Shown: in pieces, positions 351-904 of the stretch
Layout of the letters: every line of letters starts with the position of its first letter
How positions within the stretch are numbered: position 1 is the first letter of the stretch
From: a plasmid
NCBI RefSeq assembly: GCF_988243305.1
Contig: NZ_OZ547142.1
Reading direction: 5' to 3' (one strand)
DNA: 1,549 nt
Position numbers and translations under genes: made by a program
Notes under the pieces: model-generated
The model's input: only the letters and a program-made list of their open reading frames with translations
What the model was told of the DNA's origin: nothing
Database searches by the model: none

Positions 351-524
351 GACCTGAAAGCCCCTGGTTAGGGGTATCGGCGCGCTTGACCTCCTGAGAG
401 CCTCTGTAAGCGTTTTTCGCGCCTTCCATGCCCTGGCGGGCATCTAAAACCCGTTTCGTGCGTCTGAGAGCTTTTGAGCGCGTTTGAGGGGCTATCTGGC
501 GACTCATCCCCAAAAGAACAACAC

Positions 525-558
525 CGGGATCACAGACAACATGCGAGAGGTGATCCCG
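525..558. other. Hairpin (9-bp stem, 16-nt loop) abutting the conserved backbone segment
   Basis: CGGGATCAC (525-533) pairs perfectly with GTGATCCCG (550-558). Confidence 0.5.
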
Positions 559-626
559 CTCGCCGCAAGTCGATGACCGAGCGTAGCGAGCGAATCGACG
601 AGGAAGCGGAAGAGAACCGGAAGCCA
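551..626 (+). other. Conserved ColE1-family origin-distal backbone segment (region where pMB1-type plasmids carry primosome assembly sites)
   Basis: TGATCCCGCTCGCCGCAAGTCGATGACCGAGCGTAGCGAGCGAATCGACGAGGAAGCGGAAGAGAACC aligns by eye at about 75% identity to the reverse complement of the pUC/pBR322 stretch ...CTTCCGCTTCCTCGCTCACTGACTCGCTGCGCTCGGTCGTTCGGCTGCGGCGAGCGGTATCAG... That orientation is RNAII-sense. Confidence 0.55.
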
Positions 627-680
627 CATTGAGCACTTACGCACTGATGCGGGGTGTCGGGGTGAAGCCCTGACCAAGTG

Positions 681-839: not shown

Positions 840-902
840 TGTAAGCCAGTATACACTCCGCTATCGCTACGTGACTGGGTCAGGGCTTCGCCCCGACACC
901 CC
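840..902 (-). other. ColE1/pMB1-type bom (oriT) nic region homolog; predicted nick on the minus strand
   Basis: The + strand GCCAGTATACACTCCGCTATCGCTACGTGACTGGGTCAGGGCTTCGCCCCGACACCCC (845-902) is near-identical to the pBR322 bom segment as I remember it (GCCAGTATACACTCCGCTATCGCTACGTGACTGGGTCATGGCTGCGCCCCGACACCC). The complementary strand carries ACTGG|CTTA, which I recall as the ColE1 nic sequence; this places the nick between the complements of 846 and 845. Confidence 0.6.
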
Positions 903-904
903 CA

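Follow-up and report, generated by a model that had tools for sequence, protein, structure and literature searches.

An ssiA-type cassette, a candidate primosome assembly site, in a 1549-bp RepA plasmid and the lineage-specific hairpin that overlaps it

Introduction

Why does a plasmid that carries almost nothing beyond repA and a borrowed oriT also carry a block of DNA that is conserved with pBR322, and does the perfect hairpin that runs into this block form part of the same signal? The plasmid belongs to a 1.5-kb family that ranks with the commonest cryptic plasmids found in E. coli, Shigella and Klebsiella; the O104:H4 outbreak strain carries a member of it. A preliminary description had placed hairpin and block together, in the position where pMB1 plasmids have PriA-dependent primosome assembly sites (pas). 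We consider it probable, at roughly 0.65, that positions 556-609 of the + strand, with a homology that fades near 650, represent an orthologue of ssiA and a portable primosome assembly site of the PriA type, and that the hairpin at 525-558 is not part of it.

Plasmid and replicon

The window, by which we mean the whole stretch of DNA that was analysed (1549 bp), was found by megablast to be an entire circular plasmid of the pKL1/pG-EA11/pO26-S1 type, Col(MG828). The same search returned 332 plasmid records that spanned at least 80% of the plasmid, many of them exactly 1549 bp long, with identities of 99.5-99.7%. The records came from E. coli, Shigella and Klebsiella as hosts, and MOB-suite typed these plasmids as Col(MG828) and "mobilizable". 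pKL1, which is itself 1549 bp long, is a member of the same family (PMC12839544), as is the pG plasmid of the O104:H4 strain, which was described as "cryptic, only encode repA" (PMC3486847). The sole real gene was repA, which encodes a 158-aa HTH initiator on the + strand and runs from 1132 to 1549 and across the circle junction into 1-59; because the gene wraps this junction, its open reading frame seems truncated at either end of the window.

A scan of the whole plasmid with Rfam found no RNA I, returning one chance lncRNA match only, and the initiator was of the RepA/HTH kind; the plasmid is therefore not a ColE1/pMB1 replicon. Alignment to ColE1 (NC_001371) gave no origin homology 5' of position 556, and an RNA II/RNase H/Pol I origin was not found by this comparison. 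No DnaA box lay near the pBR322-conserved cassette, as one does in pBR322; two sites with one mismatch were present elsewhere in the plasmid, a number below chance expectation. A sigma-70 promoter scan of the whole plasmid yielded no promoter-like site. The origin of pKL1 was reported to lie upstream of repA (PMC3832669), and the region so described corresponds to about 350-500 nt right of the cassette in the window.

A ColE1-type bom/oriT nic region was present at 841-903 (+ strand), ~97% identical, with 2 mismatches, to ColE1 1462-1522. As the plasmid encodes no relaxase, mobilisation would need one in trans. We take the ColE1 nic site to be cut between TGG and CTTA (about 2254 in pBR322), from which it follows that the transferred strand would be the minus strand of the window and that the cassette would not lie on the strand entering the recipient. 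The pMB1-like position named in the preliminary description held only as synteny with this bom, because the host plasmid, with its RepA/HTH initiator and no RNA I, is not pMB1-like.

Several further repeats were recorded on this side of the plasmid. A 29-nt inverted repeat (651-679 and 874-902, 93% complementary) encloses 194 nt that ColE1 lacks, and its 651-679 arm repeats the right end of bom in inverted orientation (GGGGTGTCGGGG.GAAGCCCTGACC). The insert between cassette and bom also holds a near-perfect palindrome at 681-718 (GTAATCGTAT...ATACGATTAC), with 19-nt arms, no spacer and a perfect outer 10 bp, and bins 651-750 were also divergent between the Col(MG828) lineages (77-78%). Right after bom, 905-933 can pair without mismatches into a 13-bp stem around a 3-nt loop (AAGGGCGTTGCGT GCA ACGCAACGCCCTT); it may be a single-strand signal or an element resembling a terminator. 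Upstream of repA, past an A+T-rich tract at 940-1000, the stretch from 999 to 1046 contained overlapping repeats, TGTCGCATCC[T/A]GGATG occurring twice, and a perfect 12-bp inverted repeat (1022-1033/1035-1046); the repeats at 999-1046 probably correspond to the operator/origin sites of RepA that were described in pKL1.

Homology of the cassette to ColE1 ssiA

The block that had been described as conserved with pBR322 was real, and aligned with ColE1 as well as with pBR322 (the pBR322 sequence used was a contaminant contig, L059, of a deposited assembly). Its core at 556-609 on the + strand, referred to here as the cassette, aligned base for base with ColE1 (NC_001371, L002) 1309-1362. It has the form CCGCTCGCCGCA-V1-GACCGAGCG-T-AGCGAG-V2-CGAGGAAGCGG, which alignment and covariation mark as an ssiA-type cassette and a candidate n'-pas. 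The homology began abruptly at CCGCTCGCC (556 in the window, 1309 in ColE1), continued through CGAGGAAGCGGAA and CTTACGCA and faded near 650 (~1400 in ColE1). Across 552-651, identity to ColE1/pBR322 was ~75-80%, and the cassette ends were invariant. CGAGGAAGCGGAA was fixed by the pattern of our homologue search, yet it was identical in independently found matches too.

The purine-rich sequence that was said to be retained is indeed there, read from the sequence as GAGGAAGCGGAAGAG at 600-614 (+), and includes the 3' arm of the basal stem of the cassette at 605-609. The 3' flank at 615-650 (+), with CTTACGCA at 636-643, was still homologous to ColE1/pBR322. A near-repeat, GAAGCGGAAG at 603-612 and GAACCGGAAG at 614-623, lay around the 3' edge of the cassette.

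In plasmids with a ColE1-type origin, extension by Pol I exposes n'-pas/ssiA, a lagging-strand site downstream of the origin; pUC-type origins keep ssiA, while ssiB is located farther downstream, and n'-pas has a DnaA box in its vicinity (PMC3167613; PMC3640518). Counting 555 nt from the RNA II start of ColE1 (position 641) placed the ColE1 origin near 1196, and the cassette therefore corresponds to +113 to +166 of that origin. The ColE1 copy was situated 29 nt past the DnaA box TGTGGATAA, on the RNA II-sense strand, and the + strand of the cassette corresponded to this RNA II-sense (displaced, L) strand, which is the strand of ssiA. The order and orientation of cassette followed by bom were common to ColE1 and this plasmid. 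We take the L-strand factor Y site of pBR322 to lie at about 2350-2420, and pUC presumably keeps pBR322 only up to the HaeII/SapI site (~2350-2352), which is GAAGAGCGCC at the end of the block. The alignment to ColE1, the distance from the origin, the strand, the published placement of ssiA and the presumed pUC boundary together indicated that the block is probably the homologue of the ssiA of ColE1/pBR322 (= rriA, pas-BL, the phiX174-type n'-pas).

Conserved structure of the cassette

One genome per species was scanned with a pattern, which yielded 120 loci. These scan loci, together with the window and plasmid loci (ColE1, IncX4, Col(MG828)), gave 53 distinct true homologues, which were aligned (alignment A3); the set includes pBR322 and pUC (both as assembly contaminants), p15A types, Yersinia pestis, Pantoea, Pectobacterium, Shimwellia and Kluyvera. 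Many of the matches in Streptomyces, Cutibacterium, Corynebacterium, Moraxella and MAGs were contamination of deposited assemblies by pUC, pBR322, p15A or small enterobacterial plasmids; among loci L007-L126, L059 was pBR322, and L016 and L017 were pUC-lac junctions.

RNAalifold on the alignment of 53 predicted one long irregular hairpin, and an explicit model of our own agreed with it. In the explicit model 80% of the cells were paired, compared with 22-36% when the partners were slid, and the covariation score was 0.142, against 0.079 for shuffles (0/500 reached the observed score) and at most 0.076 with slid partners. The basal stem pairs its 5' arm CCGCT (556-560, +) with AGCGG at 605-609, within the AAGCGG motif, and its columns (5-9/56-60) were 98.9% paired; as the arm is essentially invariant, this stem gives no covariation information. 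In the middle helix of the A3 covariation model, the 5' arm GTCGAT (569-574, +) pairs with the 3' arm ATCGAC (594-599, +). Middle-helix pairs 19:49, 20:48 and 21:47 showed several standard pair types, and in ColE1/pBR322 types two of the middle-helix pairs are replaced by tandem G.A. Pair 24:45 was CG in 42 of the 53 homologues, TA in 11 and broken in none.

The tip, GCGTAGC at 581-587 (+), would form a mini-hairpin with a G-C pair, a C-G pair, a sheared G.A and one free base. Its closing pair (31:38) was GC in 38 homologues and AT in the other 15, with none broken, and the motif RCG-N(1-2)-AGY with a complementary closing pair was found in 51/53; N was T, C, G or TT, and almost no variation was seen at the sheared G and A. 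Mini-hairpins of the type GCGNAGC/GCGNNAGC, with two closing pairs, a sheared G.A and one or two free loop bases, have a Tm of 70-76 C and are found in phage complementary-strand origins (PMC13037366).

Compensatory changes were present in two helices among the 53 homologues, as in a conserved single-stranded DNA stem-loop. The folding energy of the cassette in the nearest-neighbour model was no better than that of shuffles (z = -0.4 to -1.3), and for this reason the structural claim rests on covariation. A competing helix, GCTCGC/GYGAGY, was 99.7% paired in the alignment, with one-sided G-C/G-T changes only, and the 3' half of the cassette owes part of its conservation to the search pattern, which fixed some of that half. 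The GNA tip, the tandem G.A and the G.T pairs stabilise the + strand only and are destabilising mismatches on the complement, which argues for the + strand as the functional strand. As modelled, the conserved features of the hairpin make sense only on single-stranded DNA of the + strand.

The window and pMUB-MIN10-3 were 94% identical overall, and bin 551-600 was the most divergent between them, with 69% identity and 16 differences. Both of these Col(MG828) versions retained the helices and a GNA or GNNA tip despite this low identity, which suggested structural constraint or cassette exchange, not decay.

Distribution of the cassette and the upstream module

At least 5000 plasmid records matched window 500-660. 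The cassette was found behind unrelated left flanks in ColE1, p15A, pPCP1, Pantoea, Pectobacterium and an iteron plasmid, and in one contig (L025) the right side of the window followed a different left flank, indicating that the cassette acts as a mobile unit whose 5' edge is sharp.

A second module, at 399-524 (+), was common to IncX4/IncX1, Arsenophonus and Sodalis plasmids, was always positioned 5' of the cassette and contained a conserved hairpin, ATGCCC-N4-GGGCAT, at 428-443; this hairpin element may be a second single-strand signal. The element at 399-452, GCCTCTGTAAGCGTTTTTCGCGCCTTCC-ATGCCC-N4-GGGCAT, matched IncX1, IncX4, Arsenophonus and Sodalis, as well as R6K over 25 nt only. This strongly conserved element was located at 2396-2450 of L005 and, for R6K (L255), at 23067-23091; the loop of its hairpin varied, and one relative had a compensated extra pair (ATGCCGC/GCGGCAT). 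An imperfect direct repeat, CTGAGAGCCTCTGTAAGCGTTT (394-415) and CTGAGAGCTTTTGAGCGCGTTT (464-485), 77% identical and 70 nt apart, was also noted in the upstream module. R6K had no cassette, just the 25-nt match to the upstream hairpin; its ssi sites were reportedly mapped by Nomura in 1991.

Homology to IncX4 spanned window 399-615, and the IncX4 cassette was situated ~213 nt from pi-type iterons and DnaA boxes. The arrangement of upstream element and cassette recurred in IncX1, Arsenophonus, Sodalis and an E. coli RepA plasmid. The Arsenophonus copy was found upstream of a "replication initiator protein A", and the cassettes of Arsenophonus and Sodalis had a longer interior with compensating arms, CTTTGG/CCAAAG. 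In NZ_CP055208 (L249), a 2.35-kb MOBV plasmid, four iterons with 22-nt spacing ran directly into the cassette (900-1050). The first bases of that cassette were replaced (CTTTTCGCCGCAG...), and a palindromic operator and an HTH rep gene were positioned 190 nt on. In the IncX1 plasmid pN17S323-2 (L251, ~1700-1760) the cassette had been deprived of its 3' half, GGAAGCGGAA included; in this natural deletion allele the cassette was fused to a flank resembling window 625-665.

The recurrence of the two parts, and the cassette that comes straight after iterons, led us to read the cassette as a portable site of the PriA type. The pairing of the two parts accompanied the Rep-dependent origins of plasmids unrelated to one another, namely those of Col(MG828), IncX1/X4, Arsenophonus/Sodalis rep_cluster_1971 and the E. 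coli RepA plasmid, and wherever rep was annotated the polarity of the module was that of the rep gene. A bolder extension, which we offer tentatively and regard as possible rather than probable, is that 399-615 might be a two-part priming module, in which the hairpin GCCTCTGTAAGCG...ATGCCC-N4-GGGCAT and the cassette would let initiator-protein plasmids recruit the PriA restart primosome, with the GNA mini-hairpin as the SSB-excluding nucleus of n'-pas recognition.

The same distribution bears on a different history, in which the cassette came in with a ColE1-type segment, "ssiA to bom", that was captured for mobilisation, and persists by linkage only, with no role in replication. We consider this unlikely, even though cassette and bom stand in ColE1 order and orientation on a plasmid without a ColE1-type origin, and the 3'-half deletion in IncX1 indicates that the cassette can be lost. 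The cassette occurs without bom beside the iterons of IncX4, the rep genes of Arsenophonus and Sodalis and the iterons of the 2.35-kb plasmid, and both Col(MG828) lineages keep interiors that are foldable and very different; together, these observations suggested that selection acts on the cassette itself.

The hairpin at 525-558

The hairpin with a 9-bp stem reported in the preliminary description exists. At 525-558 (+), the arms CGGGATCAC (525-533) and GTGATCCCG (550-558) were 100% complementary and flank a 16-nt loop, and the single-stranded DNA fold had an energy of -8.6 kcal/mol (z = -2.6; 1 of 200 shuffles equalled it). Perfect inverted repeats of at least 9 bp with a loop of 3-20 nt arose at a rate of 0.13 per dinucleotide shuffle, with a probability of at least one of ~0.10. 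Five such loci are present in the window, and taken by itself the hairpin therefore exceeds chance only modestly. The hairpin was said to abut the block, with which it is contiguous, but the two do more than touch: they overlap by 3 nt, CCG (556-558) being common to the right arm of the hairpin and the first three bases of the cassette.

A hairpin that belonged to the site was expected to be conserved, and this expectation failed. The hairpin was absent from ColE1, pBR322 and p15A. A metagenome scan with the hairpin loop, ~90% of whose matches were chance, recovered ~15 true variants; the ~15 true left-flank variants comprised Col(MG828) sublineages, IncX4, a Shigella 5.2-kb plasmid and metagenomes. 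The stem was perfect (9/9) only in the window/pO26-S1 type, had 8/9 pairs in L106 and 4-7/9 pairs in 12 others, and the broken stems mostly showed a central 2x2 mismatch. Compensatory double changes, by which a conserved stem would be recognised, were found in none of the ~15 variants. The pMUB version was not predicted to fold into this hairpin, the loop CGACAACATGCGAGAG was better conserved than the stem among the ~15 variants, and each of the two arms was found elsewhere with partners that do not match. Most likely, 525-558 is a quasipalindrome that was perfected in one lineage, through template switching or recombination of existing arm variants. It is outside the conserved cassette, and at most it competes with the basal stem for CCG, that is, for three of the five basal pairs.

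These results also weigh on the idea of a single, larger PAS made up of hairpin and block, in which 525-558 would function as a second stem-loop. Sites of the phiX174 type are multi-hairpin structures, and the hairpin is contiguous with the cassette and folds well by thermodynamic measures. A functional second stem-loop is nevertheless improbable for a structure that is missing from ColE1, pBR322 and p15A, is perfect in one lineage only, lacks compensatory double changes in 15 variants and, when fully formed, takes 3/5 of the basal pairs of the cassette itself. The reading of the locus as a pas thus survived for the block, through the homology to ColE1 +113 to +166, the strand and the published placement of ssiA, and was lost for the hairpin.

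Proposed function

With the hairpin set aside, we return to the cassette as a portable PriA-type assembly site. Once the + strand is exposed as a single strand, the cassette would fold into an irregular hairpin of ~54 nt, consisting of the basal stem CCGCT/AGCGG, an internal loop, a middle helix of 5-6 bp and the GCG-N-AGC tip. Such a hairpin would be expected to resist coating by SSB and could be recognised by PriA, after which PriB, DnaT and DnaB-DnaC would assemble and DnaG would prime synthesis on the + strand. The cassette is homologous to ssiA, lies on the same strand, has a conserved structure and has spread as a module next to many kinds of origin. From the literature on ColE1/pBR322, we infer by analogy that PriA may recognise it; in a plasmid driven by RepA, its role would then be PriA-dependent loading on the + strand. 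No functional assay of this plasmid was found in the literature searched. The route by which the site is exposed in ColE1 does not apply here, because the plasmid has no RNA I/RNA II and no origin of the Pol I type. If the fork moves leftward from the reported origin, the + strand would be the leading-strand template. Depending on the direction of the fork, the site could act in lagging-strand priming, in a leading-strand start or in fork restart.

A double-stranded site for protein binding or a relaxosome accessory site, or an RNA element, is very improbable. An oriT is nearby, and the invariant ends CCGCT...AGCGG form a dyad, as would suit a duplex site; the covariation of the interior, however, points to pairing within one strand, the GNA mini-hairpin as well as the G.A and G.T features are specific to DNA and to one strand, and the window held no promoter-like site and no Rfam match other than the chance one mentioned above. 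The minus-strand CDS for a 41-aa "replication protein" annotated at 504-629 in CP098967 and other records was rejected as an almost certainly false gene prediction in conserved non-coding DNA, as its product belongs to no NCBIfam or Pfam family, 1-nt and 2-nt indels among the homologues break the frame, the variation is pairwise-compensatory and not codon-like, and the block is non-coding in ColE1 and pBR322.

The identity of the cassette explains this bogus annotation, as well as the matches of the window to thousands of unrelated plasmids, and it offers a way to test how the PriA pathway might be used by a RepA plasmid. The covariation further gives a structure model for the classical pBR322 pas-BL, including its GNA tip, which could guide work on PriA-DNA interaction.

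Comparison with known systems

The pHW126-like plasmids (pIGRK, pIGMS31), which are likened here by description only, are small enterobacterial plasmids with a Rep(HTH) protein and an accessory ssi-like palindrome. Their ssi is non-essential, and its deletion leads to higher copy number and to multimers; by analogy, it is a plausible model for the role that the cassette may have in a Rep plasmid. Because the order of elements is different, no equivalence of the 2.35-kb plasmid L249 with pIGRK is claimed.

The tip of the cassette has the same motif as the mini-hairpins GCGNAGC/GCGNNAGC of phages G4, St-1 and alpha3 (Kimoto and Hirao 2026, PMC13037366). It reads GCGTAGC in the window, GCGCAGC in pBR322, GCGGAGC in IncX4 and GCGTTAGC in others, the last being the octamer of St-1/alpha3. 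The phage sites are primase-only (G4-type) signals, whereas in the cassette the motif sits at the tip of a longer hairpin that belongs to the PriA-type family, and, unlike the phage motif, the homologues of the cassette also commonly show an A-T closing-pair variant, ACG-N-AGT.

The pBR322 pas-BH, or ColE1 rriB (ssiB), is the H-strand site beyond bom and is of the same functional class as the cassette; pas-BH presumably carries AAGCGG as well. The window had no ssiB homologue, as its homology to ColE1 ended at 903 and no second AAGCGG was found on either strand.

ColE1 rriA/ssiA (pas-BL) has the same invariant CCGCTCGCCGCA...CGAGGAAGCGGAA ends as the cassette, the same GACCGAGCG-N-AGCGAG core and the same downstream CTTACGCA; relative to the bom that follows, it occupies the same strand, and its predicted hairpin architecture is the same. 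It differs in being preceded by an RNA II/Pol I origin and a DnaA box, neither of which is found before the cassette of the window, and in its middle helix, which has tandem G.A where the window has the arms GTCGAT/ATCGAC. Compared with ColE1, the window also has ~190 nt, including the inverted partial copy of bom, inserted between cassette and bom. Set beside ColE1 rriA/ssiA, the cassette is a further instance of an element that is already known, an ordinary and well-explained feature with which current understanding is not overturned.
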